A program made the position numbers and the translations under genes. The notes beneath the pieces were generated by a model. It ran no database searches. It was not told the origin of the DNA and saw only the letters and a list, made by a program, of their open reading frames with translations. A DNA stretch of 64,000 nt, taken from assembly GCA_018266175.1 (NCBI GenBank), contig JAFEAY010000010.1, forward strand, positions 53,942 to 117,941, in the 5' to 3' direction. The DNA comes from Candidatus Babelota bacterium (lineage in GTDB: Bacteria; Babelota; Babeliae; Babelales; RVW-14). Below, in pieces: positions 3,001 to 47,508 of this stretch (positions are counted from its first letter, which is position 1; each line of letters begins with the position of its first letter).

Positions 3001-3845
3001 CACTTGCTCCATATCTTGAAAAAATTAATACCGTTAAGCTCAAGCAACTCGATACGCTTATTGCAAAAATAGCAACTGATGAAACTGATGATTCTTTTGA
3101 GAGAGCACTCAAGTTAATCGAAACAATAACCGGTATACTTGGTTATCGTAGCCTGCTCTCGTCTATTTTAGATCGTAGTGAAAACAAAAATATAAAAACG
3201 AATTTTGCTCAGTTCAAAAATAATCTCTCAAGCCCAGAGTGGCGAAATAAGTTAGATGACGTCGTTAAAGCTTACTTTCGTAAGAAGCTTGAAGATGGGT
3301 ACTTTATACCTAAACCTGCTTATAGTCGTTATAGTTCAAATACAACAAACCCTCTTATTTTGTACATAATCGAAACCATTTACCAAAAATTCCCTGATGA
3401 TCAGAATCTTATCAACTTGGCTGATAAGCAGCTTCTTGATTCAATCAAACATGATGTTCTTGATACTATTATTAAAACCAAGCAAGACGAAAAAGATCTA
3501 TTTGTACAACTCTGTGTCACTGCGCTTAGGAGAAAGAAGGCTTTGGAATTGGAAGGCTTTGCTAAGAATACTATGGCATCATATTCTATTACGCCCATTG
3601 AAAAACTATTTGCAACACTCATCTTCCTTGATGCAGAAGTTAGATCAGCAGAGTTTTTAAGAAGTTTAATTAATGAGGCAAAAGGAGTACTTTCAAACCT
3701 TTATTCTAACTATAGAGATAATGATCTGGCAAAAAAAGTACTTCAAAAGATCATATCAATCTGGGATCGTCTGAGTTTTATACAGACACCACCTGGATAT
3801 ACAAAAAAAATGCTCGAAGATCTCATTAACCCCCATGCATACTGA
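90..3845 (+). CDS. Very large (>=1251 aa) alpha-helical hypothetical protein, effector-like. The reading frame is open from nt 3 to 90, so the gene probably starts upstream of the window.
   Basis: Long uninterrupted ORF. It shares a ~70-aa module (HYARWERCTDYVEYEG...GFDATW...) with the 7686..9872 protein. No stop codon in frame between window start and the first Met. Confidence 0.6.
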   Translation: MQDQLENFQLPVNKLARQLKDWIYLVKTGTPQEAQEALAKLWLVFNFMPPQADYAERIHQLQTYAALIISNLLENLTINSGDENYLGKRLFPIHFLETILFQHHKDSEGLYGDSVIKLWTQMKEEKKGNEAVTTTDTYGKLAGILTSRGLTQDLKDTWKVFIDSLDNTGKSMQEIMKVSKLQRQIAWLEKSMQALKPGSKNDELRQELQKDLDKVKAELGAQTISDDDNNKAKFYQMLITLGKLDMLDLWLHTSFPNALNDLAQLIKEFDDSQAFLIELLKYKQLIEDVNVAGFEDPTTFLKNWNAFQADPGNILDYFIQDNLFMEKFKNAQGLGKLAALGVMEELVTKFDAAIKAVTGSTKFIVTELADGKSFNAVRADEALLKKQISTQKDKIFAFHLMLEKYLKLLQKWYQLSLDSSIQWIFAGQNLNQSITSQLEKADKLLKETLIKKTNDAEQLQAKVHAEGSAIGSTQAGQAADRLAANTHEELFTFTHQSLLIVITKFMNQYGFKDEQLPQTVQTLDKHIAGKKKNWGIIEGGLQYGSYRPSLVGTLFKNNILTRKYNFPQGLHSAAVKLIYNTKTEQCSLTFSMFGADHYARWERCTDYVEYEGLNQNIGEKPRTTFMTKGFDATWSLDSKNPESTIIKLQAIIQTLCAIAGANDQSSASHYFDDSQMNKVIELCATKYPRIHCFFNLALDNLTQDNISNNTINHLMKIASKLLEPGGEYALNSEIYLYRLPLAPDMYGENKEVFYGITPNNFYELAGTGTRDIKRYKHANIRAILIKLIELKDALNADQKLAFLNLIEAHQEYIVDQWDTINIPETRTYNYQKHQYDTTPEVSFKAFIDALPADLQARKTEILRQLVTQSDYGNNSAVYNAYYRNAPYGDPKVQPLSGADLKQFFVQRGSNILRTPACTALYQKVENTMNPKEKETFARLVGDSLSHKDYLIRENANTLFATLQQDNSLQNTLAPYLEKINTVKLKQLDTLIAKIATDETDDSFERALKLIETITGILGYRSLLSSILDRSENKNIKTNFAQFKNNLSSPEWRNKLDDVVKAYFRKKLEDGYFIPKPAYSRYSSNTTNPLILYIIETIYQKFPDDQNLINLADKQLLDSIKHDVLDTIIKTKQDEKDLFVQLCVTALRRKKALELEGFAKNTMASYSITPIEKLFATLIFLDAEVRSAEFLRSLINEAKGVLSNLYSNYRDNDLAKKVLQKIISIWDRLSFIQTPPGYTKKMLEDLINPHAY

Positions 3846-4041: not shown

Positions 4042-5364
4042 CTAAATCATCGATGCCGGCAGAAAAAGTATTTTATTCTTTTCATCAAATGAAAGAGGCC
4101 CCATGTAACAAAAAACACCCAGCGATGCCTGAGGTGTAGCGGCCATAAAGCTTTTCAGATTATTGAATTTTTTCGTTTCAATCTGAGAAGAATAAGTAAT
4201 TTCGAATGGAATAATTCGCCTTCCAAGCGCAACAACAAAATCAACCTCAGCTCCCCCAGCAGTTCGCCAAAAATGAATTTGATGATTTTCTGATTGAGTA
4301 TCAAGCCACGTTTGTAACTCGTTAAGAAACCAGGTTTCAAGTCGATGACCTATCAATGCGGTACTTTTCAAAACGGTAATCTCATGAATACCAGTCAAGT
4401 AACTGACCAATCCGTTGTTAATCAAATAGCCCTTTGGTGATTTCACTAACCGCTTGATAGAACTTCTGATGTAAGGAAATAATTCAGTGTATTGCAGTGT
4501 GGCAAGTAAGTAGTCTCGATATTTTGAAAGGGTAGCTCTTGAGCAATGCAAGGCATCCATAATTTTTTTATCATCTCGAACAGATCCAGTAATTTCGGCA
4601 CAAATTTTCATCAGATTTTGATACATATTTAAATCGCCGATTGAATCAATAGCGCGAATGTCTTTTTCTAAATAAGTCTGCAAATAATCACCTAAATATT
4701 TTAAGCGCAACGATTCCGTTGCTGCCGCTATGACTTCTGGAAGGCCACCCCATACCAGATGGTTGTGTAATGATTCCTGCAAAATATTTTGAAAAGGACT
4801 CATCTGTACCATAAAATCTTTCAACGCTTGCACATCTTTTTCAGAAAAAATAAGGTCAAAGACATGGTGCGGTGGTAATGAAATTCCCTCATGCAAAAAA
4901 TGTGTCGTTTCTCTGAGGTTAAACTCACGCAAATTTAAAAGCTCAACTCTACCCGCTAAAGATTCTGCAGTTAATTTATGTAAATTAAGATGCGCTGATC
5001 CAGTAAGAAGAAATTTTATAGAGTCTCTCCCTTTATGGGTATCGTATATAATCTTTATTTGATCAAATAAAGCAGGGCATTTTTGTGCTTCATCAATAAA
5101 AACCCAGAGCTTTTTTTGCCCTCCAATTTTTTGAAGTGCAGCCTGCTCAATCATCAACTCAAGCTCTTCGGCTATAACTCTGTTTCTTTGGCTGAGCACG
5201 TCCATGTTCAAGTGAACCCACTTCTTCTCAGGATTAAGGTTCATGTAATATTCAAGCAGTGTTGTTTTTCCAACACGACGGGGGCCCAAAAGGGCACTGA
5301 TGAACGGCCGCTCAAACGACTCAAAAAGGAAGGCTTCATTAGCTCTTACAATGTATTTCTTCAT
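4042..5364 (-). CDS. AAA+ ATPase of the DUF4143/COG1373 type
   Basis: Walker A LLGPRRVGKTTLLEYY near the N-terminus, and DEAQ Walker B. Overall similarity to the 52595..53755 paralog. Start moved to the internal Met (MKKYIVRANEAF). Confidence 0.75.
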   Translation of the reverse strand: MKKYIVRANEAFLFESFERPFISALLGPRRVGKTTLLEYYMNLNPEKKWVHLNMDVLSQRNRVIAEELELMIEQAALQKIGGQKKLWVFIDEAQKCPALFDQIKIIYDTHKGRDSIKFLLTGSAHLNLHKLTAESLAGRVELLNLREFNLRETTHFLHEGISLPPHHVFDLIFSEKDVQALKDFMVQMSPFQNILQESLHNHLVWGGLPEVIAAATESLRLKYLGDYLQTYLEKDIRAIDSIGDLNMYQNLMKICAEITGSVRDDKKIMDALHCSRATLSKYRDYLLATLQYTELFPYIRSSIKRLVKSPKGYLINNGLVSYLTGIHEITVLKSTALIGHRLETWFLNELQTWLDTQSENHQIHFWRTAGGAEVDFVVALGRRIIPFEITYSSQIETKKFNNLKSFMAATPQASLGVFCYMGPLSFDEKNKILFLPASMI

Positions 5365-5508
5365 TTTTAAACTCAAAATAACGCTTTTGCATGACAAAAT
5401 TAACACCTTAATGTTAAAATTGCGACGCAAAAGTGTCAAGGCATTGTGAAAAAATCCTTCGGCGGGAGAAATTGCCTGGATAGACTTTTTTGGTCTATCA
5501 ATGAAATT

Positions 5509-5555: not shown

Positions 5556-7637
5556 TTATTTTTGTTTATCGAGTTCTTCTTTTAGATGATCCATGAGCGT
5601 CTTTTTAAAACCCATTTTAAGGCTATTTTTATGCTGATCATAAAATTCTTGGGCTTCTTCTTTAGCATTGTTATCAGCACGTGCAATAACTCTAAAATAA
5701 TTTTTTAAAATATTAGTATTCGAAGGATTACTAGAATCTGCGGCATAAGTTTTATGAGAAGCAGGATCAATTATAGTAAGCCGGTTTTCTCCTACCGGCA
5801 AGATAATTTGATGATCTTTAATTAATAGAAGACATCTCATAAGCTCTGCTACAACTTTAAGCTCATTAGTTTGCTGTATTCTTATGAACATATTCTGCAA
5901 TGTAGGTCCACTTGCAAGAATATTTCTGACAATCTTATCAGTATAACCTAGAAGCTCATTGAGCGATTTGTTAGAACGTAATTCGTTCGCATTAATATAC
6001 TGTAAAAGCCATCCAAGGTAATCAATAAATTTAAATGCTCTTACTCTTGCATCAGAATGCTTAGAAGCAGCATCAATAATGTCTTGATTACTATCTATCG
6101 CTGCAATCAACTTTATAACTTCAAGTAAGCCATTCAACTCAATCGATTGTTTTTCAACTACTTTAACTTCATCCTTAATTTCACTAATAGATTCATTAAA
6201 TAATCGATCCTCTTCTTCCTCACGTCGACGTTCATCTTCCTTACGAAGATTTTCTTCTTCTTCTTCTTTACGTTGACGACGTTCTTCTTCTTCTCGCTGA
6301 AAACGCTCTTGTGCTTCTTTTCGATCTTTTTCTTCAAGAGCAGCTAATCTTTTTTTCTCTTCTTCTAGGCGAATACGCTCTTTTTCTTCTAGCTGAAAAC
6401 GCTGTTCTTCTCGTTCACGTTGTTCATTCTCACGTCGCTTACGATCTTCTTCGTCACGCTGACGACGCACTTCTTTTTCATGACGCTTCTTAATACGAAT
6501 TACTTCTTGTTCGAGCCCTATTATCTCATCCATTAAAAATCGTGCATATAATGTTGCAAGAACTTCTGCTCGAACTTGTTGCCCTGTTAAACTATAACCC
6601 CTACCTAGATTTGCTTCAGTGAAAAAAACTTGATAGCTTACCCCATCTATAATTAATTCTTTTGCAGATTGCTTATCAGAAGGAATTGGCACAGCAGCTT
6701 CTCCTGGAAACCGTATTTTTTTACTGTTGGTATAATCTCTGCAAGCAAGCAAAATATTAGTTAAAGCATTTTGAGATGTGATTAAAGGCATTCTAAATTG
6801 CGTATGGCTCAATCCATTGAGAAGGTAATAAAGTGCCCCATCAAGCGAAGGCTGATATTGATTTTTAACTCCATGTCCTTGTCCGATATACCAGAGAATA
6901 GCTGTTGCAGCCCACCATAAAAAGTTTGGCTCGTAAAATCCATTTTCAAGAAGCGAAAATGCAAGGCGTGAGCCAGGACTTCTCCATCCAATTTTTGGAA
7001 GAATAGCTTTTAAAATTTCAGCATCTTGTTTTTGCCCATTTTCTATACAAGACTTTAAAACATCTGTATAAGACCTTATCGTATCCACTCCCACATCACT
7101 TGTGTCGTCAGAAATCCAACTAACAGCATGATGATAAGAATGTTGGTCTGCCAAAGATCTTTGCACTTTAAGAATTTTTGCATGGCTATACTTCTCAAGC
7201 AGGCTATTCACAAGCTTCTCACAAGCACTTTTAATCACCTGAATTGCTTGTTCAATATTTTGAGCATCAATATTTCTTAATGCATCTCGGTTATGACCAT
7301 CAATAAGAGAACTTCTAAATACTTTAACCTCGTTGACTAGATCAGCATCTTGCTGGGAAATATCATGCTCAAGAGTATTAAGTATTTCATTTACTTTTTG
7401 ACTAAAATTTCGATAATCAATTTTGGGTTCAATTTTTATCTCTTCAATCTCAACAGCATCACCGCGTAGATGCTGTGAAATAGCCTCAAGCCCATTCTTC
7501 AAGGCTTCAAGCTTAGCCCTCAACTGAACAAGGTTTTGATGCAATCCTTGAATGCGGTCGCTCAACTCATCAGCCGCCAGTGAGCATACCAAGCTCATGG
7601 TTATTGCCATTAAAAATATTTTACCATACTGCTTCAT
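5556..7637 (-). CDS. Secreted protein with an N-terminal conserved leucine-heptad module and a central E/R/K-rich charged single alpha-helix region
   Basis: Signal peptide MKQYGKIFLMAITMSLVCSLAA. Motif LHQNLVQLRAKLEALKNGL is shared with the 7686..9872 protein. ~110 aa of RRQRDEEDRKRRENEQREREEQ... residues. AGAGGAG ribosome-binding site upstream. Confidence 0.6.
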   Translation of the reverse strand: MKQYGKIFLMAITMSLVCSLAADELSDRIQGLHQNLVQLRAKLEALKNGLEAISQHLRGDAVEIEEIKIEPKIDYRNFSQKVNEILNTLEHDISQQDADLVNEVKVFRSSLIDGHNRDALRNIDAQNIEQAIQVIKSACEKLVNSLLEKYSHAKILKVQRSLADQHSYHHAVSWISDDTSDVGVDTIRSYTDVLKSCIENGQKQDAEILKAILPKIGWRSPGSRLAFSLLENGFYEPNFLWWAATAILWYIGQGHGVKNQYQPSLDGALYYLLNGLSHTQFRMPLITSQNALTNILLACRDYTNSKKIRFPGEAAVPIPSDKQSAKELIIDGVSYQVFFTEANLGRGYSLTGQQVRAEVLATLYARFLMDEIIGLEQEVIRIKKRHEKEVRRQRDEEDRKRRENEQREREEQRFQLEEKERIRLEEEKKRLAALEEKDRKEAQERFQREEEERRQRKEEEEENLRKEDERRREEEEDRLFNESISEIKDEVKVVEKQSIELNGLLEVIKLIAAIDSNQDIIDAASKHSDARVRAFKFIDYLGWLLQYINANELRSNKSLNELLGYTDKIVRNILASGPTLQNMFIRIQQTNELKVVAELMRCLLLIKDHQIILPVGENRLTIIDPASHKTYAADSSNPSNTNILKNYFRVIARADNNAKEEAQEFYDQHKNSLKMGFKKTLMDHLKEELDKQK

Positions 7638-7685: not shown

Positions 7686-9872
7686 TTAATTACTCGGTTT
7701 ATATTTCTCAACAAACTTCTCTTGATTGGAATCAATCGATGGATGTCGGATTGTTCTGAGATAATCAATCGCTTGTCGTGGCGACATCCCGTGCCGTGCA
7801 ATCAACCACACCGCAAGCATTGTTCCAGTACGACTTTGGCCAAACTGACAATGAACAACCGCCCTTTTTTTTGTCTTATGCGCTTGGTCAACCGCTTGCA
7901 AAAATTCTTGAATTTGAGCAGGTTCTGGTGTATCGCCACTTGGAATATAAAGAAATTTATCAACAACACTTGTTTGACCTTGTTTGCCCAATGTACCAGG
8001 CCACCAAGCTTCGTTATTTAAATCTTTATTTAACGAAACTATCAAGCCAATCCCCAACCATTCAAGCATTTTTATATCACGAGTACTGGCTGGCTGCTGC
8101 ATGCCGGCAAGAAGCTGAGGTGCAACCCAGGAAAAATTTTGTGTTGCAAGCCTGAATGCAAGTACCGCATCAAGCGCATGAAAATCATGACCCTGCTCTC
8201 GTAAATAATTAAGCGCTTCAAGGCATTGATCTATAAAATGAGTATATTTAAGATCTTTTTGATAAAGATGATTAAATTCTCGCTCTTTTTGTTGGTTCGT
8301 AAATGGACAAACGTCATAAATAAATTGAGTTAACGTTGCTGGCAGCTGTACCGGCTTAAGGGCTTGATATGCTTTTTTAAACAGATCAAGCGTTGGTTGC
8401 CGAGTAATTAAATCATGCGCTTGGTTTGCAAAAAATTGCTCCGCAAGAGCTTGAGCGTCTGGAACTGTACCTAAGCTGAGTGGCACATACAAAGCAGACA
8501 AACTGGTTGCATTTGCTTTGGTCAGGGCATCACCACGCGTCAGGCTATAGCCACCAACACTATCAATTATTTTTTTAACTTGATCTTTTAAATCGATAAT
8601 ACTTCCTGCTGCCTGTAGGATCACCTTAAGCTCGGTGCTTGCACCAAGACCAAATCTCCCCCAGCTTCCACGACGGGCAAAAAAGTCAGCATGCTGCTCA
8701 ATCAGGTTCAGCAAACCCACCCACGTTACTTGGCTGAACGTTTCATACCGCTTGTCTTTGACTATTTTTTGTACAATATTTTGAATCAGCCCTCCGCGAA
8801 AACTGCTCACCGCGCAAACTTTTTTTACCGGATCTTGAGTAACATCTTGATCGTACACATCGAGTTCATGCTCAGTTAACGTTTTGTAATCAGGGATAAC
8901 GACTTCGTCAGGGGTTTTGGCAAAGTCTATTGGTGATGGCGTATGACAGGCTTTAAAATAAAAAAGATCGGCTTGTGCTGCGTACTCTGGTTTTTGGAAA
9001 AATCGCTTGATGATTTCAAAAACTTTTTGCCAATCATTATTCCCGTCATCACTGGCCTTAATCACATCAAGGGCTTTTGTTAAAAAAAAGTTCGGGCGTT
9101 GACCATTCAGTGAACTATCCAAAATATAGCCTTTTAAACGCTCCACCAAGTTTGTATCTTTTATGATTTTTTTGAGTGCATCAAAAGCTTCACCGCTTTT
9201 TTTCATCACTGGACCCGCAACTATTTTTTCTTTGCCAGCAGAATCCGTAACTTTTTGTGTAAGACCTCCCGTTGCTTGAGCAAGTAATAAAGTAATTTTG
9301 GCCAGAACATCAAGCTGGGAGCTGTACCACTGATTCTCTTGAAATGGCCAAGCAAAGGTAACACCGTTATGGTCGATGCTCATAACCGCGCCACTTACAT
9401 CCATCAGTGCTGCAATCATCTGCGCATAGTCGGCAACTTTTTCCCAACGAGCATATTCGTTAGGGCCTGAATAGTGAATGGTAATGACGCCTTGCTTGGC
9501 AGCTCGATTGTGCTTAAATTCAAGCGTTGCTTGAGTTCCAGGCGTTAACTGATAGGTAATAGTTTGAGAAAATTCACCGGTTGTATCATCAAAAACATCG
9601 GAAGCTAGAGTAACCGTAACACCATCAACTTTAAGGTTAATAAACTTTTTAATGTTACTTGCAACAAAATAAGGAGCTTTGCCTTGATTCAAATTTTCGT
9701 AAATAGAGATTAGACCATTTTGAAGCGCTTGCAGCTTGTGCTTGAGGCTTGTCAAAGAGGCATGCAGATCTGCAAGCTTTGTAGGAAGGTCATCGGCAGC
9801 AGTCAGCGTGGGGCTGCATGCAAGGGTTATAAGAAAGAGTGTGGTGAGAACAGACTCATAGAGCTTGGCCAT
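7686..9872 (-). CDS. Secreted effector-like protein with a C-terminal dual-specificity (Cys-based) protein phosphatase domain
   Basis: Signal peptide followed by the shared module LHASLTSLKHKLQALQNGL. C-terminal motif VHCQFGQSRTG (CX5R P-loop) with an upstream Asp. NEYARWEKVADY module shared with the 90..3845 protein. Start set at MAKLYES, which has an AGGAGA ribosome-binding site. Confidence 0.65.
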   Translation of the reverse strand: MAKLYESVLTTLFLITLACSPTLTAADDLPTKLADLHASLTSLKHKLQALQNGLISIYENLNQGKAPYFVASNIKKFINLKVDGVTVTLASDVFDDTTGEFSQTITYQLTPGTQATLEFKHNRAAKQGVITIHYSGPNEYARWEKVADYAQMIAALMDVSGAVMSIDHNGVTFAWPFQENQWYSSQLDVLAKITLLLAQATGGLTQKVTDSAGKEKIVAGPVMKKSGEAFDALKKIIKDTNLVERLKGYILDSSLNGQRPNFFLTKALDVIKASDDGNNDWQKVFEIIKRFFQKPEYAAQADLFYFKACHTPSPIDFAKTPDEVVIPDYKTLTEHELDVYDQDVTQDPVKKVCAVSSFRGGLIQNIVQKIVKDKRYETFSQVTWVGLLNLIEQHADFFARRGSWGRFGLGASTELKVILQAAGSIIDLKDQVKKIIDSVGGYSLTRGDALTKANATSLSALYVPLSLGTVPDAQALAEQFFANQAHDLITRQPTLDLFKKAYQALKPVQLPATLTQFIYDVCPFTNQQKEREFNHLYQKDLKYTHFIDQCLEALNYLREQGHDFHALDAVLAFRLATQNFSWVAPQLLAGMQQPASTRDIKMLEWLGIGLIVSLNKDLNNEAWWPGTLGKQGQTSVVDKFLYIPSGDTPEPAQIQEFLQAVDQAHKTKKRAVVHCQFGQSRTGTMLAVWLIARHGMSPRQAIDYLRTIRHPSIDSNQEKFVEKYKPSN

Positions 9873-9975
9873 GATTTTAGCGTCTCCTGTTTTTATTGTT
9901 ACTAACATTTTATAAAAACATAGATCCAGGTAGCCACGCAAGATTCTAGCTGTATTCGTTTTCTTGAGCGGTTAA

Positions 9976-17815: not shown

Positions 17816-17951
17816 TATAGCTTTCCAAGCCTGAAGGCATGGATAAACGAAGTTTGCCCGCCTACGTTAACTGCCATCGCTAAAAAGCTGTGACATTTGA
17901 ATTAACTTCGGCGTGGCATCCCGCCATAGCCTGAAAGGCGACGGCGGATGG
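17816..17951. repeat. Intergenic segment adjacent to the 3' end of tRNA-Gly carrying two sequence blocks that recur next to tRNA-Gln (29035..29112)
   Basis: 17922..17951 is the reverse complement of 29035..29064 (about 90% identity). 17816..17852 matches 29076..29112 in direct orientation (32 of 37 positions). Confidence 0.6.
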
Positions 17952-18023
17952 AGCGGGAAACGGGATTCGAACCCGCGACCCTTGCCTTGGCAAGGCAATG
18001 CTCTACCACTGAGCTATTCCCGC
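17949..18023 (-). tRNA. tRNA-Gly (anticodon GCC), CCA encoded
   Basis: Cloverleaf GCGGGAA...TTGCC-TTGCCAA-GGCAA...GGTTCGAATCC...TTCCCGC-T-CCA on the minus strand. Confidence 0.9.
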
Positions 18024-20168: not shown

Positions 20169-20244
20169 GCCGAGGTAGCTCAGGTGGTAGAGCAGAAGAC
20201 TGAAAATCTTTGTGTCGCCGGTTCAACTCCGGCTCTCGGCACCA
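20169..20244 (+). tRNA. tRNA-Phe (anticodon GAA), CCA encoded
   Basis: GCCGAGG acceptor. Anticodon loop CTGAAAA. T-arm GCCGGTTCAACTCCGGC. ACCA end. Confidence 0.9.
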
Positions 20245-20395: not shown

Positions 20396-21727
20396 ATGTT
20401 TGATTTTTTGTCTAAAAAGTTTTCCGGCGTTCTTGGCTGGCTCAAAGATCGTGGTCGCCTTTCTGAAGAGAATATTCAGCAGGCTTTAGATCAAGTTCGC
20501 GAAGCACTCCTTGAAGCTGACGTGCCACTTGAAATTACTACCGCCTTTCTTGAACAGATCAAAAACGATGTGCTTGGACAAAAAATTCAATCTTCCTTGA
20601 ATCCCGGTCAACATCTTATTAAAATTGTTCATGAAAAATTGCTCGATTTTTTGGGCGGGAAAAATGTCCTTGCTCAAGTAAATCTACCAATTCCATCGGT
20701 CGTTTTAGTTATGGGGCTACAAGGGTCTGGTAAAACAACAACGATTGCAAAACTTGCTCATTGGATACTCCAACAAGCTAAAATTCGTGGCAAAACACGC
20801 CGTATTTTAGTTGCCTCTGTCGACTTTTATCGACCAGCAGCGGTTGAGCAGCTCAGCATTCTTGCAAAACAAGTTGGTGTTGATTTTTATCGGGCTCAGA
20901 GCACAGACCCTGTTGCAGCAGCAGTTGAAATTGCACAGCATTTTAAAGCTCAGCACTATGAACACTTGCTTTTGGATACTGCAGGCAGACTTCATATCGA
21001 TGACCAAATGATGCAAGAGCTTGTACAAATTAATACGAAAATAGCTCCTAAATATAAATTTTTAGTCTTAGACTCAATGACGGGACAAGAATCCCTCCGT
21101 GTGGCTCAGGCCTTTGAGCAGGCGGTTGGGTTTAATTCTGCTATTTTAACTAAAATGGACAGTGATACCCGTGGCGGCGCGGCATTCGCCTTTAAATTTG
21201 CTCTTAAAAAGCCTATCTCTTTTGTTGGAGCAGGCGAAAAACCTGAAGACCTTGAAAGCTTTATTCCTGAACGTATGACCTCACGCATCCTTGGGATGGG
21301 TGATATTATGACACTTATTGAAAAAGCTCATGAAAATATCAGTCAGGATGAGCAAGAAGAAATAACCAAGAAAATGATTGATGGGAACTTTAGCCTGCAA
21401 GACTTTGCAAGCCAACTCACCCTCATTGATAAATTAGGGTCTTTACAAAAGATTGTTCGGTACCTGCCAGGTATGAACACCCTATCATCTGAAGATTTAG
21501 AGCGAGGTCAGCATGACATTAAAAGATTTAATGCTATTATTAGTTCTATGACCTCAAAAGAACGTATGTTTCCTCACCTGCTTGATGGGTCCAGGAAGAA
21601 GCGTGTAGCTTCCGGGTCTGGTACAACTGTGCAAGATATAAATCAGTTGTTACAAAGATTTGAACAAAGTAAGCAATTTGTTAAAATGTTTAAGAAACCT
21701 GGTAAATTTAAACGGTTTTTTAAGTAA
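20396..21727 (+). CDS. ffh: Signal recognition particle protein Ffh (SRP54)
   Basis: MFDFLSKKFSGVLGWL... N-domain. GLQGSGKTTT, DTAGR and TKMDSDTRGGAA G-domain motifs. Met-rich M-domain. Start moved from the upstream TTG to the ATG. Confidence 0.95.
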   Translation: MFDFLSKKFSGVLGWLKDRGRLSEENIQQALDQVREALLEADVPLEITTAFLEQIKNDVLGQKIQSSLNPGQHLIKIVHEKLLDFLGGKNVLAQVNLPIPSVVLVMGLQGSGKTTTIAKLAHWILQQAKIRGKTRRILVASVDFYRPAAVEQLSILAKQVGVDFYRAQSTDPVAAAVEIAQHFKAQHYEHLLLDTAGRLHIDDQMMQELVQINTKIAPKYKFLVLDSMTGQESLRVAQAFEQAVGFNSAILTKMDSDTRGGAAFAFKFALKKPISFVGAGEKPEDLESFIPERMTSRILGMGDIMTLIEKAHENISQDEQEEITKKMIDGNFSLQDFASQLTLIDKLGSLQKIVRYLPGMNTLSSEDLERGQHDIKRFNAIISSMTSKERMFPHLLDGSRKKRVASGSGTTVQDINQLLQRFEQSKQFVKMFKKPGKFKRFFK

Positions 21728-21816: not shown

Positions 21817-22050
21817 ATGGCAGTTAAGATTCGTCTAAGTCGTATTGGTAAAACAAACCGCCCCTACTGGCGTATTGTTGCAGTTGATGCACGTCGCAAA
21901 CGGGATGGTGCGTTCCTTGAAAATCTAGGAACCTATGACCCTATTAAGCATGAGCTTGTACAATTTCACACTGACAAGCTCGAAGCATGGGTTGCCCAGG
22001 GTGCTGTTTGCACACCAGCAGTTCTTAAGCTTATTAAACGCAGCACATAA
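21817..22050 (+). CDS. rpsP: 30S ribosomal protein S16
   Basis: MAVKIRLSRIGKTNRPYWRIVAVDARRKRDGAFLENLGTYDP. Confidence 0.9.
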   Translation: MAVKIRLSRIGKTNRPYWRIVAVDARRKRDGAFLENLGTYDPIKHELVQFHTDKLEAWVAQGAVCTPAVLKLIKRST

Positions 22051-22137: not shown

Positions 22138-22371
22138 ATGCTAAAAGAATTAGTTGAACATATTGTAAAGAAGCTTGTTGATAAGCCGGAAAACGTAGCT
22201 GTTTCAGAAATTAGTGGCGAACAGGCAACTATTATTGAACTGCGCGTTGCCCCAGAAGATCTTGGAAAAGTAATTGGAAAAGAAGGCAGAACAGCTCGAT
22301 CAATTCGTACACTTGTTCATGCAGCTGCGTCTAAAGAACACAAACGCGTTGTACTTGAAATTTTAGAATAG
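22138..22371 (+). CDS. KH-domain RNA-binding protein (YlqC/UPF0109 family)
   Basis: [18 protein letters not shown] motif. Located between rpsP and trmD as in many bacteria. Confidence 0.75.
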
Positions 22372-22398
22372 TCTTTCTCAGTAAAATGAGTGGTCTGG

Positions 22399-22425
22399 AG
22401 GCTGGCTTTACCGCCAGCCTTTTTG
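22399..22425 (+). terminator. Rho-independent terminator/attenuator between the KH gene and trmD
   Basis: aggctggc-tttacc-gccagcct followed by ttttt. Lies upstream of the true trmD ATG. Confidence 0.55.
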
Positions 22426-22449
22426 CACTTTAACCCAAATAGCTTTGCC

Positions 22450-23850
22450 ATGAAAATTTCGATTATTTCTGTCTTTCCCGAATTTCACCAATCAATCAAT
22501 GCACTCAGTATTATTGGTAAGGCCGTACAACAAGGGCTTGTTTCATTTGATTTCATTAGATTTTCAGATCTATGCGAGCCAAAAGAACGGATTGATGAGC
22601 CAACTTGTGGGCCTGGAGCTGGAATGATCTTGAAGCCTGTGGTTGTTCAAAAAGCAATTGAACTTGCTGAGCAACGATGGGGACAAGGCTTTAAAGTTTT
22701 CTTCTCACCTCATGGCACTGTTTTGACACAGCCAATTTTGCGACAATATGCTGCGCAGTTTTTTGCACAATCTAATCAGCCCGCTCTCTCTGGGTATCCC
22801 GTCGAAGCTTTAGCGAAGACGGATGTATCGAAGGGTATGAGCGTAAATCACCTTATCTTGGTCTGTGGCCGCTACGAGGGAATCGATGAACGTGTTGAGC
22901 GACACTACGCCGATGCGCTCATCTCAATTGGTGATTATGTTTTGATGGGTGGCGACTTGCCTGCTCAAGTATTTCTTGAAGGACTTTTAAGGCTGTTACC
23001 TGGTGTTATTGGCAACCAAGAATCGGTTGAACAAGAATCGTTTGAAAGCGCATTTCTTGATCACCCACACTACGGATTACCGGCGGAATGGAATGGCATG
23101 AAAATTCCTGATGTCCTACGATCAGGGAATCATGCAGCAATCGACGCGTGGCGAAAAGATGCTGCGGCCAAGCGAACGGTACACAATCGCTTTGATTGGT
23201 TTGTGCGTGCCCAACCAAACCCTCCAAGCATTGCGCTTGCCAAAAAATTCATTCCTGTGCACTATGTTGCAGTAATGCATACCCAGGTAATCATTAAAGG
23301 TGGAACTGTTGGACAAACTTCAATTCCTTCAATTGATATCCATGACATCGCACGCGCTTGTGCATCGTACGGCATTAAAAACTTCTTCATCGTCAGTCCA
23401 TTACTTGATCAACAAAAAATTGTTGCCACATTTATGGAATTTTGGCTTTCTGCTGACGGTGCAAAATACAATGAAAACAGGCATCAGGCTATTTCAAGTA
23501 TAAGACCCGTTTTGTCGTACCAGGAAATGATTGATCTGATTGTCCGAGAAGAAGGGCAAGAACCACTGATTGTGTGCACATCGGCTCGAAATGTTGAACA
23601 CAAACAACACATCGATTATTTCAGCCAGAAAATTGTCTGGTCACAAGAAAAACCTGTTCTTTTCTTGTTTGGAACAGGACAAGGACTCAGTGATGAACTT
23701 GTTCAAAAAAGTGATTTTGTACTTGCTCCAATTGAAGGGCTAACCGATTACAACCACTTATCGGTACGATCCGCAGTATCCATAATCCTTGACCGGTGGC
23801 TTGGACTTTCGCCCCGTCTTGGTTCAAGCAAGAAAGCCCCTGTAAGTTAA
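22450..23850 (+). CDS. trmD: tRNA (guanine37-N1)-methyltransferase TrmD fused in frame to a C-terminal SpoU/TrmH-like SPOUT methyltransferase domain
   Basis: N-terminal ~270 aa: CGRYEGIDERV, GDYVLMGGDLPAQVFLEGLLRLLPGVIG, SGNHAAIDAWR (TrmD). C-terminal ~210 aa: IHDIARACASYGIKNFFIV, LFLFGTGQGLSDEL, APIEGLTDYNHLSVRSAVSIILDRW (SpoU-class motifs). Confidence 0.8.
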   Translation: MKISIISVFPEFHQSINALSIIGKAVQQGLVSFDFIRFSDLCEPKERIDEPTCGPGAGMILKPVVVQKAIELAEQRWGQGFKVFFSPHGTVLTQPILRQYAAQFFAQSNQPALSGYPVEALAKTDVSKGMSVNHLILVCGRYEGIDERVERHYADALISIGDYVLMGGDLPAQVFLEGLLRLLPGVIGNQESVEQESFESAFLDHPHYGLPAEWNGMKIPDVLRSGNHAAIDAWRKDAAAKRTVHNRFDWFVRAQPNPPSIALAKKFIPVHYVAVMHTQVIIKGGTVGQTSIPSIDIHDIARACASYGIKNFFIVSPLLDQQKIVATFMEFWLSADGAKYNENRHQAISSIRPVLSYQEMIDLIVREEGQEPLIVCTSARNVEHKQHIDYFSQKIVWSQEKPVLFLFGTGQGLSDELVQKSDFVLAPIEGLTDYNHLSVRSAVSIILDRWLGLSPRLGSSKKAPVS

Positions 23851-23949
23851 CGGAATTTGGTGTTGATCAAAGAGAAAAAAGCTTATATACTTGGATAAAC
23901 ACGATTTTTCAGAAAATCATATGACCTTTGGTAAAATTTTGAGGACGCA

Positions 23950-24342
23950 ATGAAAGCAAATTGTTTAACACGCGAAACTATTTTGGATCTTGGAACTGAA
24001 CGAAAACTTCCTAGTTTTCGTGTTGGCGATACCGTTGAAGTATCTCAGTTAGTCTCTGAAGGAGACAAAGAACGTATTCAGCTTTTTGAAGGCGATGTTA
24101 TTTGTATGCACAAAAACGGCATCTCATCAACATTCACTGTTCGCCGCATGGGCGCAAACGGCATCGGAGTTGAACGTATTTTCCCTTTCTATTCTATAAA
24201 AATCAGTGCGCTTCGCGTTGTAAAACGTGGTGATGTTCGTCGAGCAAAACTCAGCTATCTTCGTGATCGCCTTGGTAAAGCAGCTCGTATCGATGAAAAA
24301 ATTCTCACCAAAGAGCAAAAAGCTGCTCTTGATAGAGAGTAA
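23950..24342 (+). CDS. rplS: 50S ribosomal protein L19
   Basis: FRVGDTVEV...ERIQLFEGDVI...TVRRMGANGIGVERIFPFYSIKI...VRRAKLSYLRDRLGKAARI. Confidence 0.9.
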   Translation: MKANCLTRETILDLGTERKLPSFRVGDTVEVSQLVSEGDKERIQLFEGDVICMHKNGISSTFTVRRMGANGIGVERIFPFYSIKISALRVVKRGDVRRAKLSYLRDRLGKAARIDEKILTKEQKAALDRE

Positions 24343-24352
24343 TTCACTCGCT

Positions 24353-24934
24353 ATGTTTCGACGTATCGAAAAAATTATTTGTACCATAGTTACTTTAGTA
24401 GCTATGGTACTTTTAGTTTCGTGTGGAAAGAAAAGATCTTATCACCAAGGAGATCTTGATATCGCCAGCACAAGCAAGGCTTCTTCAGACCCTCAAAATG
24501 TCCCGGTGCTCAATCATCCTCGTTCTTTTGATGATTTAGATAGTGACACCCCAGAGTTTGATTCGATCAAGCGCTTTTCTTATGAAGCATTCACTAAAAA
24601 AATAGTCCCACTCACAGCAACGCTTGATTTCCCAATCCCTGTAAATTTCACACTCCAGGCCTCTCCTGTTAAAAAATCTGAAACAAAAGGGGCTTGCTTA
24701 ATTTACGAGGGGGATCTTTCACAAAAAAAAATTGTTTCTTTTTATCTTCACGAAATGCGCAAGGCCGGTTGGTCTGTTAAAAATTTATCGACTAGTCGAG
24801 AAGGCCTTTTGGTTTGCTCCCGCAAAGCTACACAGGTTGTTGTTTCATTGCGCAAAGCTCGAACAATCAGCAGTAACAATCATGTCGAGCCCAAGAAAAC
24901 GCAGCTGTTATTATTTTTCACCAAAGAATCTTGA
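24353..24934 (+). CDS. Putative lipoprotein, function unknown
   Basis: MFRRIEKIICTIVTLVAMVLLVSCGK lipobox. Start set at the ATG just after the rplS stop, rejecting the overlapping upstream start. Confidence 0.5.
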   Translation: MFRRIEKIICTIVTLVAMVLLVSCGKKRSYHQGDLDIASTSKASSDPQNVPVLNHPRSFDDLDSDTPEFDSIKRFSYEAFTKKIVPLTATLDFPIPVNFTLQASPVKKSETKGACLIYEGDLSQKKIVSFYLHEMRKAGWSVKNLSTSREGLLVCSRKATQVVVSLRKARTISSNNHVEPKKTQLLLFFTKES

Positions 24935-28963: not shown

Positions 28964-29037
28964 TGGGAAGTCGTCTAGCGGCAGGACCCTGGATTCTGGA
29001 TCCAGTTACATAGGTTCGAATCCTATCTTCCCAGCCA
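28964..29037 (+). tRNA. tRNA-Gln (anticodon CUG), U1-A72 pair, G73 discriminator, CCA encoded
   Basis: TGGGAAG acceptor paired with CTTCCCA. Anticodon arm CTGGA-TTCTGGA-TCCAG. T-arm TAGGTTCGAATCCTA. Confidence 0.8.
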
Positions 29038-37799: not shown

Positions 37800-38687
37800 T
37801 TACGTAACTTTTAATTTTTTAAAAACATTGTCCCATCCATTTTTTCCCCTGGTATGCTGAGCAACTGCTTGATGAACATCTTTGATAAAGAAATGTTTTA
37901 CGTTTTTAATATTCCAAGCTCTTTTAAATTCTGGAGTATCATTCATAACAACCAAGGTATACTTGATCTTAGGAAACTTTTTTTGAATAAGATTATTAAG
38001 CTTAATCGCCTCTTGTTTTTTAATTTTTGTTCGAAAAAAATAAATATGTTTCCCAAGCTTCAAAGCGCGATAAAAACGATCAATACGACGATAGTACTTA
38101 TCTCTCACTTGCTCATAATCATAGAGCGGCGTACTATCATTTTTAAAATCGTGAATGAAATTAATTCTATAACCTTTATCAAAAACTCCGTGATTCACTA
38201 AGGGCAAAGCACGCGGTGTAACAACAAGATTTTCTAATTTTAAAAAATCTTTAAAATCGCTTTTTAATGCCTTATAAATCGAAGAGAATTCTGAAATAGC
38301 CCAATCAAATGGAAAAAATGCCTCAGTAATTTTATTTTTCTCAAAATTAATAGCAGGCCCACAATTCATACCCAAGCTTATAAAAATACTATTTTTTTTG
38401 AACTCGGCTTTATTCTCTTTTTCTGCGTTAAGCCAAAGAGGAGCTCGCATCGCATCATGATCACGAAGCTTTTCTAATTCATGGTAGAGTTGGCCAACTT
38501 CAATATCTTCGCGCTCAGACATAAAAACTGCAGAATCATCAAGTATATTTTTTGTATCCTGATTTGAATAAACAGGCACCATAAAGCTACACCATAAAAG
38601 GGTAGTACTCAGGAGCAAGCTTACATTTTTCTTGGGCAAGTATAATGACATCTCAAAGTCCTTTCTCTCGGTCTTACAAATACTCAT
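37800..38687 (-). CDS. Secreted protein, paralog A of a GxNC / HDF-motif family (possibly the DUF1796 putative papain-like peptidase family)
   Basis: IFISLGMNCGPAINFEKNKITEAFFPFDW, FIHDF and YDYEQVRDKYYRRIDRFYRAL are shared, with about 50% identity, with 47509..48420. Confidence 0.6.
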   Translation of the reverse strand: MSICKTERKDFEMSLYLPKKNVSLLLSTTLLWCSFMVPVYSNQDTKNILDDSAVFMSEREDIEVGQLYHELEKLRDHDAMRAPLWLNAEKENKAEFKKNSIFISLGMNCGPAINFEKNKITEAFFPFDWAISEFSSIYKALKSDFKDFLKLENLVVTPRALPLVNHGVFDKGYRINFIHDFKNDSTPLYDYEQVRDKYYRRIDRFYRALKLGKHIYFFRTKIKKQEAIKLNNLIQKKFPKIKYTLVVMNDTPEFKRAWNIKNVKHFFIKDVHQAVAQHTRGKNGWDNVFKKLKVT

Positions 38688-42911: not shown

Positions 42912-45524
42912 ATGCTTTTATCTAACCAAGGCTTGGTCACCAAAAGCTTTGTTCTTATAAGCCTCTATCTTGTACTCGTAGTAAGTGATGCTTACTCAAT
43001 GGACGCGAATAATAATAACTTTTTTACGCCTCCAGTTTCGCCCCTCAAACGTAAGGCAGATGATACTACTCAAAGCCCTTCCAAGCATCTGAAAAAAAAT
43101 CTTGATTCTTCATGCTTTGCTTCACCTGAAAGAGAATTCCCTAGTTCGCCAACGCGCTTAACACCCTCAATGAAAGATATAAAACTTTACTCTCCTGTTG
43201 GATTAAAGACTCCAAAAAAATATGTAAATACAAAGCCAACATCTGAAATTTTGAAACTTTTCATTACCAATTTTCTTCATTATGATGAGCAATCTTCATT
43301 AACTCCGCTCATTAAATTTCTTTTTTTATTGGATCAAAATAGTGGGGAGCTCCAACGAAGCTGCGCCGTACTTGACCAACAACGAGATCCTCATGCTCTA
43401 TTTCCTCAATTTTTGTGGTCAGAAATGAATGAAGATTTTTTTGACACGCTGCTAAAAAAATATCATCAAATGATTAAAGTACTTGAATTTCAACAATCAC
43501 TGAGGGCTTGCAAAACCGACAAAGAACGATCAAATAAAGAAAAAACTCTTAAAGCTCAAATAGCCCACATAGAAAAGCAACTACAAAGTTATTTTGACGA
43601 TCAAGATCTGATTAAACAAAAAGAAACCCTTCAAGAAATGTTGAAGGTAATTCCTCGAAAAGTTCCTGAAATCAAGATCCTTAACCTGGTTAAAAAGCAT
43701 CTATTCGAAAAAATAGATACGATCTTAGATGAAAAATATCGCTTAGAAAATTGTGGCAACGCTTGCATCGAAAAGCCCCTAAAAGTAAAACGTTGTAACA
43801 CATGCTCTCAATTTAATATATCAGCTGTTCAAAAAAAATGGCTCGAAACTCTTTTAAAACATTTGATTACTATTTACGAAGAACAGGATAGGACGCTTTG
43901 TAATCGCTATCAAAAAATTGCACGTTACCTTTTAGGATTCTATTTGTATCCATGGAAGCCTCAATGTAAATTGCGCTATGCTCAAATATTAAGTTTTTCT
44001 TCAGATGATGAAGATATTGACGATCAAGATATTATTCCTGCACCATTTGACCTAATTCCTGCAGCATTAAAGTTGTTAAGTCATAATGCCGCTCATTCAG
44101 ACTTCATAAACCTTCTGCCTGAAAGAGGTATACTATTAAAGTTCAGTAACGCCGAACTCATTGAAGATTGCATTCAGCAATCACCTCTTTATTACTTGCT
44201 TTGTTTTAATATGCAGGAACAAAAAATAATTGAACGCATCGAAAATATTTGCACAGGTCGTTATGAACCAATAGATTCATCCAAAAATAGTATGATGCTC
44301 AGTGAATTAGTAAATATCATGATAGAAGACTATAAGAACAGCCTAGAAGAATTTACTCAATCTCCTCCAAGCGCTTCTTTATTGAGCAAAGTAAAATATG
44401 CAAAATATGTATTAACCAAAACATTTGAGTTAATTACCAATCATCTCACTCAGCCTTGCCAAGATACTCATAAACCCCACATAATGCTGCCTGACTGTAG
44501 CAATTTATGTTCGTATAGCTTCAAAGATTTGATACGTACAGCACTCATGATAAAAAATGTCCTCCAGCTTCAGAATAGTTTTCTTGATAATCTCATCATG
44601 GTAAAAAATCACCACATTGAGCAAGTGACCTATGAACTTCATGAAACCAAAAAAGTCTATCAACTTGGTGGTGGACATTTAGATTGTGCACTCCCCTATA
44701 ACCTTACGACAAATCACGGCGAACACACTGTTTGTGAAGTTTCCAGACTCGCATCTAATCCCACAACGGGAGTTAGTTTTTGTGACTGGTCAATTTATGA
44801 TGATCAAAAAAAATACGCTTCGCATAAAAGCTCAACAGTCTTCCCCTCCTGTTTTAATCAAGAATTTTGGTCTCAATATGTTTTGAAACTCCTTTCACAA
44901 AATGCAGATGACCGTGATTTTTGCTTGTATGATTCTGGAAATCGTATGCACGAAAAAGATGGCGTATGCAAGCGTATGATTATTTTCCAACACAAGCACA
45001 CACTCGGATGCAAGAGTCATAACTGCTTGTGTGACCAAAATTCTTTAATGTATATTGCTGCTATCATTCGAGAAGAGGTCATCGACAAGTCAGAAGATTA
45101 TGGCGATCAAGCTAATATCTTGCGTTCGCTGATATCGCTCTATCCGTTATCCGCTTACTGCTTAGATTATGATGGCAATCAGGATTGCTTTTTTTTAAAT
45201 GGTGAAAAGATTGACGATGATGATCAGTTAAATAATGCAATACCAAATTACTTAGGGAAAACAAGTAATCACACGCAACTAAAACTTGATCAGGATGGTA
45301 AACCGATACATACAATTAATTTTCTTTCATGTTCCGCGATATATGAAGTCTTATTGACTGCTCGGGAAAAAGTAGCGGCAACCAACCCACTTGCAAATAG
45401 CGGCGATATCAATACGTCAATAATCGAAATTACCAATCCTGCTACGCACGACACATACGTTTTAGTTAAAGTTGCTCAGGGTATTGTTGTTAAAATGCTC
45501 AAAACCGATCTCTTAAAAATATAA
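42912..45524 (+). CDS. Large secreted Cys-rich hypothetical protein, effector-like, with N-terminal S/T-P plus basic motifs
   Basis: Signal peptide. TPPVSPLKRK, SPEREFPSSPTRLTPSMK and SPVGLKTPKK motifs. Many Cys residues (CGNACIEKPLKVKRCNTC). Confidence 0.55.
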   Translation: MLLSNQGLVTKSFVLISLYLVLVVSDAYSMDANNNNFFTPPVSPLKRKADDTTQSPSKHLKKNLDSSCFASPEREFPSSPTRLTPSMKDIKLYSPVGLKTPKKYVNTKPTSEILKLFITNFLHYDEQSSLTPLIKFLFLLDQNSGELQRSCAVLDQQRDPHALFPQFLWSEMNEDFFDTLLKKYHQMIKVLEFQQSLRACKTDKERSNKEKTLKAQIAHIEKQLQSYFDDQDLIKQKETLQEMLKVIPRKVPEIKILNLVKKHLFEKIDTILDEKYRLENCGNACIEKPLKVKRCNTCSQFNISAVQKKWLETLLKHLITIYEEQDRTLCNRYQKIARYLLGFYLYPWKPQCKLRYAQILSFSSDDEDIDDQDIIPAPFDLIPAALKLLSHNAAHSDFINLLPERGILLKFSNAELIEDCIQQSPLYYLLCFNMQEQKIIERIENICTGRYEPIDSSKNSMMLSELVNIMIEDYKNSLEEFTQSPPSASLLSKVKYAKYVLTKTFELITNHLTQPCQDTHKPHIMLPDCSNLCSYSFKDLIRTALMIKNVLQLQNSFLDNLIMVKNHHIEQVTYELHETKKVYQLGGGHLDCALPYNLTTNHGEHTVCEVSRLASNPTTGVSFCDWSIYDDQKKYASHKSSTVFPSCFNQEFWSQYVLKLLSQNADDRDFCLYDSGNRMHEKDGVCKRMIIFQHKHTLGCKSHNCLCDQNSLMYIAAIIREEVIDKSEDYGDQANILRSLISLYPLSAYCLDYDGNQDCFFLNGEKIDDDDQLNNAIPNYLGKTSNHTQLKLDQDGKPIHTINFLSCSAIYEVLLTAREKVAATNPLANSGDINTSIIEITNPATHDTYVLVKVAQGIVVKMLKTDLLKI

Positions 45525-46803: not shown

Positions 46804-47421
46804 ATGCGCGTTAGAACACTCCTCAACCCTCTCAGCTGCCCTCAACGATTTTCAAAACAAAAATGGGCCGAAATATTTCCCCATTTCACCGGCACTCTTG
46901 ATGTCGAAGTTGGATTTGGAACCGGTAGTTTTTTAGATCAGTATGGTAAAGCAAACCCCACTCATGCGTTAGTAGGATTTGAGATACGAAAAAAATTGGT
47001 TGATGCTGCTCAAGAGCTCATCACCACAAGTAAATTAGACAATGTCTTTTTGGTCTGGGGCAATGCAAGCTTTGGACTTCACGATATGTTTGATGACAAC
47101 AGCATTGATCGAATTTTTGTCTTTCATCCAGACCCATGGCCAAAGAGGACACATCACAAACGACGCGTTATTAACCAAGATTTTCTAACGTTAGTTCAAA
47201 AAAAGCTCAAGCATAATGGTTGTCTTTATATCGCAACCGACGTACCAGAGCTTTGGGATGTCATGCTTAAAACAGTAAGTACTTCCGAAAAGTTTAAACC
47301 TGTTCAGGATGACTACTTCTGGGCAACGTTCTATAAAACTCGATGGAAAGAAATGAGCGAAGAGCACAATCGCACACTCTATTTTGGAACATTTCAAGCT
47401 CGAATGCAACCGCAACGATAA
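46804..47421 (+). CDS. trmB: tRNA (guanine46-N7)-methyltransferase
   Basis: LDVEVGFGTGSFL and FHPDPWPKRTHHKRR motifs. Confidence 0.85.
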   Translation: MRVRTLLNPLSCPQRFSKQKWAEIFPHFTGTLDVEVGFGTGSFLDQYGKANPTHALVGFEIRKKLVDAAQELITTSKLDNVFLVWGNASFGLHDMFDDNSIDRIFVFHPDPWPKRTHHKRRVINQDFLTLVQKKLKHNGCLYIATDVPELWDVMLKTVSTSEKFKPVQDDYFWATFYKTRWKEMSEEHNRTLYFGTFQARMQPQR

Positions 47422-47508
47422 TAGCTTCGAATATAATCACTTTCTTGAGATTGCATCATCTTGTTATCTATGCTTATGATTTCACTAGGCATCATACAAG
47501 AGGTATTA

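Follow-up and report, generated by a model that had tools for sequence, protein, structure and literature searches.

A TrmD–Tm1570 Fusion Protein With Two SPOUT Domains, and Its Gene Block, in a Candidatus Babelota Genome

Introduction

TrmD, the tRNA methyltransferase that forms 1-methylguanosine at position 37 (m1G37), was reported to be fused to a COG4752 domain in Desulfovibrio, Lawsonia, and a deltaproteobacterium (Tkaczuk et al., 2007; PMC1829167). A later survey counted 66 fusion proteins and distinguished four arrangements of the two genes, namely separate, adjacent, overlapping, and fused; the same study showed the Calditerrivibrio nitroreducens fusion protein to be homodimeric and to contain a double trefoil knot, with a TrmD domain active in methylating tRNA-Leu (Perlinska et al., 2024; PMC11187310). 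S-adenosylmethionine (SAM) is present in both domains of the crystallized fusion (bioRxiv 10.1101/2023.03.13.532328). The architecture has therefore been described (2007) and crystallized (Protein Data Bank, PDB, 8B1N), and the protein considered here is a further member, from Dependentiae. Its gene, trmD–tm1570, lies at positions 22450–23850 of a 64,000-nucleotide stretch of a Candidatus Babelota bacterium genome (GenBank assembly GCA_018266175.1, contig JAFEAY010000010.1, positions 53,942 to 117,941 of the forward strand; hereafter, the window), for which a preliminary description had been made from the sequence alone.

One Reading Frame Encodes Two SPOUT Domains

The gene and its parts are as follows (aa, amino acids).

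22450..23850, + strand: trmD–tm1570 fusion gene (continuous open reading frame, ORF; two Pfam domains; best PDB match 8b1n_A; five assemblies)
22450..23214, + strand: TrmD (m1G37 tRNA methyltransferase) domain, aa 1–255 (profiles, motifs, and fold)
22747..22848, + strand: variable insertion in TrmD, aa 100–133 (aa 109–128 predicted to be disordered; predicted local distance difference test score, pLDDT, below 50)
23215..23259, + strand: inter-domain linker, aa 256–270 (predicted to be helical at 258–265)
23260..23805, + strand: Tm1570-type SPOUT domain (PF09936/COG4752), aa 271–452 (profile, PDB match, fold, and conserved residues)

A single unbroken ORF runs on the + strand from the ATG at 22450 to the TAA at 23850 and encodes 466 aa, without an internal stop or a change of frame. 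The Pfam family PF01746 (tRNA_m1G_MT) matches aa 24–247 (E 2.7e-37; 128.8 bits vs. a cut-off of 27.3), and PF09936 (Methyltrn_RNA_4, "SAM-dependent RNA methyltransferase") matches aa 272–451 (E 1.9e-58; 197.7 bits vs. a cut-off of 22.6), spanning profile positions 3–181 of 182. About 211 aa lie beyond the TrmD domain, in line with the extension of about 210 aa given in the preliminary description, and its proposal of a single polypeptide with two SPOUT domains is upheld by the one ORF, the two families, and the recurrence of the gene in five assemblies. By sequence, the closest PDB entry is 8b1n_A (E 1.9e-84, aa 3–449), and 3dcm also matches (E 1e-39). An AlphaFold2 model built from 55 sequences (mean pLDDT 87.9; predicted template modeling score 0.82) was compared with known structures by Foldseek, and 8B1N ranked first.

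The mechanical ORF list and the gene callers of the public assemblies place the start at a GTG (22390), giving a 486-aa protein with 22390–22449 as extra sequence, and the hairpin described below would thereby fall inside the coding region. In L006, the closest species-level relative, a stop codon lies six codons upstream of the homologous MKISIISVFPE start, so that the GTG extension is not conserved. Because homologs do not keep this extension, the ATG at 22450 is taken as the true start, the same coordinate as that chosen initially.

In principle, a frameshift in sequencing or assembly could have merged adjacent or overlapping trmD and tm1570 genes: they are separate in 44 of the 52 loci analyzed outside Dependentiae, often with an overlap of a few bases, so that a single indel could fuse them. 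This explanation is rejected as vanishingly improbable. Five assemblies, produced independently from different sequencing runs, contain the 486-aa call at 99% identity and with the same neighbors, and none of these contains the frameshift or stop between two genes that had been named initially as a possible finding against the fusion. Both Pfam domains are present in all of the best 120 protein clusters retrieved from a collection of 5.8 billion proteins, the named homologs being labeled "Candidatus Babeliales" or "Candidatus Dependentiae," and the gene is fused at 28 of 28 Dependentiae species loci. In 119 of 121 homologs, the segment between aa 250 and 270, which contains the linker, is exactly 19 residues long, and it is moderately conserved in sequence.

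The TrmD Domain

Both NCBIfam TrmD equivalog models are passed (TIGR00088, 210.8 vs. 195; NF000648, 220.3 vs. 220), and Foldseek superimposes the N-terminal half of the model on TrmD crystal structures with a template modeling (TM) score of 0.85–0.90 and a root mean square deviation (rmsd) of about 2.2 Å. The TrmD motifs FFSPHG (aa 84–89), CGRYEGIDERV (139–149), SIGDYVLMGGD (159–169), E196-S-F (196–198), and SGNH (225–228) are all present. In an alignment of 121 Dependentiae sequences, the SAM-binding loops FFSPxG, CxRYEGxDxR, and SIGDYxxxGGD are invariant or conservatively substituted, as are Glu or Asp at position 196 preceding SF, Arg181, Asp204, and SG(N)H. These residues were assigned after the TrmD enzymes of Escherichia coli and Haemophilus influenzae (in part, PMC11187310). 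Given that its active site is intact and that activity has been measured for the C. nitroreducens protein, the N-terminal domain would be an ordinary TrmD producing m1G37 in tRNAs with G36-G37.

The domain is interrupted between the SPxG SAM loop and the CGRYEG strand, where the spacer is 49 aa long in this protein and 26–83 aa across Dependentiae homologs. The insertion is not present in 8B1N: residues 97–133 of the query align to residues 100–109 of the chain, leaving about 27–29 extra residues. It evolves rapidly, with a ratio of nonsynonymous to synonymous substitution rates (dN/dS) of 0.39 and a mean pairwise identity of 0.13. All dN/dS values refer to L006, which is masked (N) at TrmD aa 134–250, a segment that was left out. 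The N-terminal part of TrmD has a dN/dS of 0.085 and a mean pairwise identity of 0.62; for the TrmD core, in which dN/dS was left out, the identity is 0.69.

The C-Terminal Tm1570-Type Domain

The preliminary description assigned the extension to a SpoU/TrmH-like SPOUT domain and suggested a search for the SpoU_methylase family. The SPOUT assignment and the three motifs on which it relied stand, and a profile search recovers the domain strongly as PF09936; the family is a different one. In the Pfam scan of the fusion protein, PF00588 (SpoU_methylase) remains below its gathering cut-off (18.9 vs. 29.7 bits), and the C-terminal part scores 19.6–22.8 bits against a cut-off of 167 (E 7e-5) with the TrmJ/YjtD subfamily model TIGR00050 of NCBIfam. 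Membership of the SpoU/TrmH or TrmJ families is rejected on these scores. By profile, the second domain is a genuine SPOUT domain of the COG4752/Tm1570 family, a satellite of the SpoU/TrmH–TrmJ cluster that is related to it at the superfamily level only.

The three motifs, at aa 297–315, 404–417, and 426–450 (nucleotides 23338–23394, 23659–23700, and 23725–23799), coincide with the invariant columns HDIxR, GTGxGL, and DxNHLSVR of the Tm1570 family, which are the most conserved of the second domain. Arg302 and the NHLSVR motif are kept from Thermotoga to this fusion protein. The residues equivalent to SAM contacts are also conserved, Ala379, Ile428, and Asn435 corresponding to Ala357, Ile402, and Asn409 of the C. 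nitroreducens protein. The sequence of TM_1570 (3dcm) matches the C-terminal part with an E-value of 2.6e-40, and Foldseek aligns the C-terminal half of the model to 3DCM with a TM score of 0.91 and an rmsd of 1.6 Å. The domain has a dN/dS of 0.054 and a mean pairwise identity of 0.59, and is under purifying selection as strict as that on TrmD (0.054 vs. 0.085; identity 0.59 vs. 0.62–0.69).

The activity of this domain has been considered in the literature. The conserved Arg and Ser of COG4752 led to a prediction of 2′-O-ribose methyltransferase activity (Tkaczuk et al., 2007; PMC1829167), whereas tests of the Tm1570 domain found no activity on the tRNA that was used (Perlinska et al., 2024; PMC11187310). 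2′-O-methylation, which the preliminary description had considered as a partner of m1G37, is therefore a prediction and a possibility. An inactive domain, which would assist TrmD as a dimerization or RNA-binding module or act as a scaffold for folding or stability, would agree with the negative assays of Tm1570 and of the Tm1570 domain, and the fusion could be explained purely as an aid to tRNA binding. We consider this improbable, since the Tm1570 domain of 8B1N and 3DCM both bind SAM, the proposed catalytic Arg and Ser and the positions that contact SAM are invariant across phyla as well as within Dependentiae, and the low dN/dS points in the same direction.

A different proposal is that the domain acts on rRNA or in ribosome biogenesis rather than on tRNA, and that it may partly offset the missing RimM of Dependentiae (see below). 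The gene always resides within a ribosome-related block (rpsP, KH, rimM, rplS), and the SPOUT superfamily includes many rRNA methyltransferases (PMC1829167). Against this, tm1570 and rimM co-occur at 48 loci of other phyla, hence tm1570 is not a general RimM substitute; the tightest linkage, by fusion or overlap, is to a tRNA enzyme; and TrmJ, a tRNA enzyme, is reportedly the nearest characterized structural relative of Tm1570 (PMC11187310). An rRNA substrate thus appears unlikely, and a tRNA ribose 2′-OH is the target that we favor.

The Gene Block and the Missing rimM Gene

The fusion gene is part of a block with the following further features.

20396..21727, + strand: ffh (SRP54; PF00448, PF02978, PF02881)
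21817..22050, + strand: rpsP (ribosomal protein S16; PF00886, E 8e-20)
22138..22371, + strand: KhpA-type KH-domain gene (PF13083, E 1.9e-26)
22397..22429, + strand: GC-rich hairpin and T-run between the KH gene and trmD (attenuator- or terminator-like)
23863–23891 and 23908–23937, + strand: promoter-like hexamers upstream of rplS (sequence scan)
23950..24342, + strand: rplS (ribosomal protein L19; PF01245, E 1.2e-38)
24381..24420, + strand: terminator-like hairpin after rplS (13-bp stem followed by a T-run; −18.8 kcal/mol)

The rplS gene is probably under its own promoter. A tRNA-Phe(GAA) gene at 20169–20244 (+), about 150 nucleotides upstream of ffh, heads the block.

The stop codon of the KH gene is separated by 78 nucleotides from the trmD ATG, and therefore there is no room for rimM. 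A hidden Markov model (HMM) constructed from 47 RimM ORFs of other phyla gave no match better than E 5.7 within the window and no match below E 0.6 in 33 Dependentiae loci (about 8 kb on either side of the operon), and the same HMM matches 48 non-Dependentiae loci strongly. The absence of rimM from the block, as read initially, is thus borne out. RimM is missing in most bacteria of the candidate phyla radiation, whose low incidence of widespread families is shared by Dependentiae (PMC6744442). A search of the literature for rimM in Dependentiae found nothing direct, and a comparative-genomics paper on TM6 mentions neither trmD nor methyltransferases. The absence of RimM is familiar from reduced genomes, and the points that are specific to Dependentiae fit genome reduction.

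Gene Order in Other Species and Origin of the Fusion

An alignment of the Tm1570 domain was scanned against one genome per species; at least 597 species were positive, the best 80 loci were kept, and gene order was mapped by phmmer. Fusion in related genomes, which remained to be checked after the preliminary description, is the rule: all 28 Dependentiae species loci that could be judged have the order ffh-rpsP-(KH)-[TrmD+Tm1570 in one ORF]-rplS without rimM. In Dependentiae, the upstream gene and the trmD reading frame are −52 to +141 nucleotides apart, which is too little for rimM. The KH gene is also missing in nine Dependentiae species (L016, L018, L020, L021, L024, L025, L027, L030, and L031), in which rpsP directly abuts the fused trmD (at position 7000–7300 in most).

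Other phyla (Thermotogota, Desulfobacterota, Bacillota, Halanaerobiales, Cloacimonadota, Calditrichota, Myxococcota, Chloroflexota, Deferribacterota, and others) have the order ffh-rpsP-KH-[ORF of about 170 aa]-trmD-tm1570-rplS. Pfam identifies the ORF of about 170 aa as RimM in all eight cases that were tested; one of the eight has just the PRC domain. The usual state of trmD and tm1570 in these phyla is separate or overlapping, as noted above, and they are fused in eight loci. Only one locus outside Dependentiae has trmD directly after rpsP; it belongs to a member of Bdellovibrionota (L067, 6841–8540), has neither a KH gene nor rimM, and carries tm1570 as a separate gene.

In a neighbor-joining tree of the Tm1570 domain, Dependentiae form one clade in which all members are fused, and the remaining fusions are interspersed with unfused relatives. 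This topology suggests that a single fusion took place in the ancestor of the sampled Dependentiae and that others arose independently several times elsewhere. Nine records of metagenome-assembled genomes labeled 'uncultured Pseudomonadota bacterium' (L006, L012, L017, L022–L024, L026, L030, and L033) fall within the Dependentiae clade and have the Dependentiae operon layout; their taxonomic labels look wrong.

A Hairpin Upstream of trmD

In the place of rimM, a hairpin with the sequence GGAGGCTGGC-TTTACC-GCCAGCCTTT (at about 22397–22424, followed by further T residues) folds at −17.5 kcal/mol, which is comparable with the hairpin after rplS (−18.8 kcal/mol). Its stem consists of 10 bp, six of them GC pairs, and is followed by TTTTTG. 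The core GGCTGGC-N6-GCCAGCC occurs once in the window, whereas none is expected from shuffled sequences. In relatives, the core is found only at the same position (L006, L008, and L010), and L007 has a C-to-T change that retains a G·U pair. In the alignment of the five sequences, 98% of the cells are paired, compensatory changes affect two basal pairs, the loops vary, and a T-run follows every stem. Thus the terminator-like hairpin noted initially recurs in close relatives. Where more distant Dependentiae have a gap between the genes at this place, a strict scan finds unrelated GC-rich hairpins with T-runs at eight of 13 loci, and bulged stems are seen by eye at the others.

The trmD start is only 20 nucleotides away from the hairpin, too close for a promoter to fit between them, and trmD must therefore be transcribed by read-through. 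The hairpin is most likely a partial intrinsic terminator, which on these sequence features would reduce the expression of trmD in comparison with that of rpsP and the KH gene. It might instead be an element for stabilizing or processing the mRNA, or an operator bound by a protein. The stem GGCTGG(C/T)...GCCAGCC is kept at the nucleotide level although the loops differ and the neighboring proteins are only 57–87% identical, a degree of conservation that exceeds the need of a generic terminator, and the lack of promoter space between the hairpin and trmD is also compatible with such roles. However, all five sequences have a T-run after the hairpin; the unrelated hairpins with T-runs at the same place in distant Dependentiae fit position-specific termination rather than a sequence-specific operator; and Rfam has no family match for the hairpin, returning only tRNA-Phe and chance-level matches. 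These alternative roles deserve some weight as a minority view, and partial termination is preferred.

Other Features of the Window

A Pfam scan of those other large ORFs of the window that precomputed Pfam matches had not already identified found no other SPOUT gene. A TrmB-like tRNA methyltransferase gene is located at 46804–47421 (+) (PF02390, Methyltransf_4, E 2e-40), and tRNA-Gly(GCC) and tRNA-Gln(CUG) genes are located at 17949–18023 (−) and 28964–29037 (+), respectively. Two paralogous ORFs, at 37800–38687 (−) and 47461–48420 (+), encode a DUF1796 putative papain-like cysteine peptidase domain, and two genes at 4042–5439 (−) and 52595–53755 (−) encode ATPases with AAA_14 and DUF4143. 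A DDE transposase gene (PF13612) lies at 63041–63655 (−). Eukaryote-like domains typical of intracellular bacteria are found in the ORFs at 7686–9941 (−) and 58123–58722 (−): a dual-specificity phosphatase domain at the C terminus of the 750-aa ORF, and an SAP domain in the second. The large ORFs at 90–3845 (+), 5556–7637 (−), and 42912–45524 (+), of 1251, 693, and 870 aa, respectively, have no Pfam match at E ≤ 1e-5.

Proposed Function and Significance

The overall explanation, to which we assign a probability of roughly 0.85, is that the gene product is a bifunctional TrmD–Tm1570 enzyme of a Dependentiae (Babeliales) bacterium, its single chain carrying two SPOUT methyltransferase domains. 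The TrmD domain would make m1G37 in tRNAs with G36-G37. The Tm1570 domain would bind a second SAM, as judged from the homologs 3DCM and 8B1N and from the conserved contact residues, and most probably would methylate a tRNA ribose 2′-OH, or possibly rRNA. Like its homolog 8B1N, the protein is expected to be a homodimer with four SAM-binding sites, each chain containing a double trefoil knot (3_1#3_1). The fusion would have arisen when two neighboring genes of the conserved block rpsP-KH-rimM-trmD-tm1570-rplS were joined, and the putative terminator would lower the transcription of trmD relative to that of rpsP and the KH gene.

Several points weigh against parts of this explanation. The literature up to 2026 reports no activity for any Tm1570-family protein, which makes the second reaction conjectural, and the similarity to TrmJ is weak by the NCBIfam scores given above. 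The NF000648 score of the TrmD domain clears its cut-off narrowly, and this domain contains the disordered insertion of about 27–29 aa. The knots and the dimer are predicted from homology with 8B1N. The loss of rimM is shown for the operon, for the 64-kb window, and, in relatives, for a region of about 16 kb that surrounds the operon. As for the hairpin, a generic terminator scan did not list it, its T-run is short (five T residues, three of which are able to pair into the stem), and its z-score is only −1.87 in an 88-nucleotide context.

The fusion itself adds little, because the architecture, a crystal structure, and TrmD activity have already been published. The lineage-specific part is modest, and comprises the fused state of every sampled relative, the absence of rimM from the operon, the upstream hairpin, and the disordered TrmD insertion. 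Dependentiae seem to be an entire phylum whose only form of the essential TrmD is the doubly knotted fusion. The known set is much enlarged: the survey of 2024 comprised 66 proteins, whereas the best 120 clusters retrieved here are all fusions and at least 597 species have a Tm1570 domain. The strong purifying selection on this orphan domain in reduced genomes argues for a real and important function. One might speculate that the fusion became fixed in the Dependentiae ancestor together with the loss of rimM (and of KH in some species) and that the second SPOUT domain carries out an RNA methylation that these intracellular bacteria with minimal genomes cannot dispense with, for example in replacing a missing TrmJ-type 2′-O-methyltransferase that acts on the anticodon loop of the tRNAs of TrmD; we regard this scenario as rather doubtful. 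If it is true, a cultivable member of Dependentiae (Babela, Vermiphilus, Chromulinavorax, or Noda2021) would be the natural system for assigning the Tm1570 substrate. The trmD-tm1570-rplS order, conserved in more than 10 phyla, and the conservation of the hairpin provide experimental handles.

Comparison With Known Systems

TrmJ and the SpoU/TrmH families of 2′-O-ribose methyltransferases (COG0565/COG0566; PF00588) share with the second domain the SPOUT fold, three analogous motifs, and the conserved Arg of motif 1, and differ in that their profiles score far below the cut-offs on this protein. The single-domain TrmD of E. coli and H. influenzae (e.g., PDB 4YVI) resembles the N-terminal 255 aa in fold (TM score 0.86–0.88) and active site; unlike canonical TrmD, the protein described here has a second SPOUT domain and an internal insertion. 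In the canonical rpsP-rimM-trmD-rplS operon, trmD likewise lies between rpsP and rplS, whereas here rimM is absent and the hairpin is found upstream in its place.

Stand-alone TM1570 of Thermotoga maritima (PDB 3DCM; PF09936/COG4752) is 39% identical to the C-terminal domain, with identical HDIAR, GTGxGL, and DxNHLSVR motifs, and its gene has the same operon place between trmD and rplS. Unlike the arrangement here, T. maritima tm1570 is a separate gene that overlaps trmD (PMC11187310), and Thermotogota loci are alike.

The closest counterpart is TrmD–Tm1570 of C. nitroreducens (UniProt E4THH1; PDB 8B1N; domains 8BYH and 8RI0), in which PF01746 is likewise followed by PF09936, with about 35% identity over the full length and with conservation of the Mg- and SAM-binding residues of TrmD and of the SAM contacts of Tm1570. 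The Dependentiae protein differs from it in the disordered insertion of about 27–29 aa and in a 14-aa C-terminal tail. In Calditerrivibrio (L048), as in the window, the fusion gene is directly upstream of rplS, but rimM is present upstream. The Dependentiae fusion forms a clade apart from that of C. nitroreducens, and probably represents an independent fusion event.

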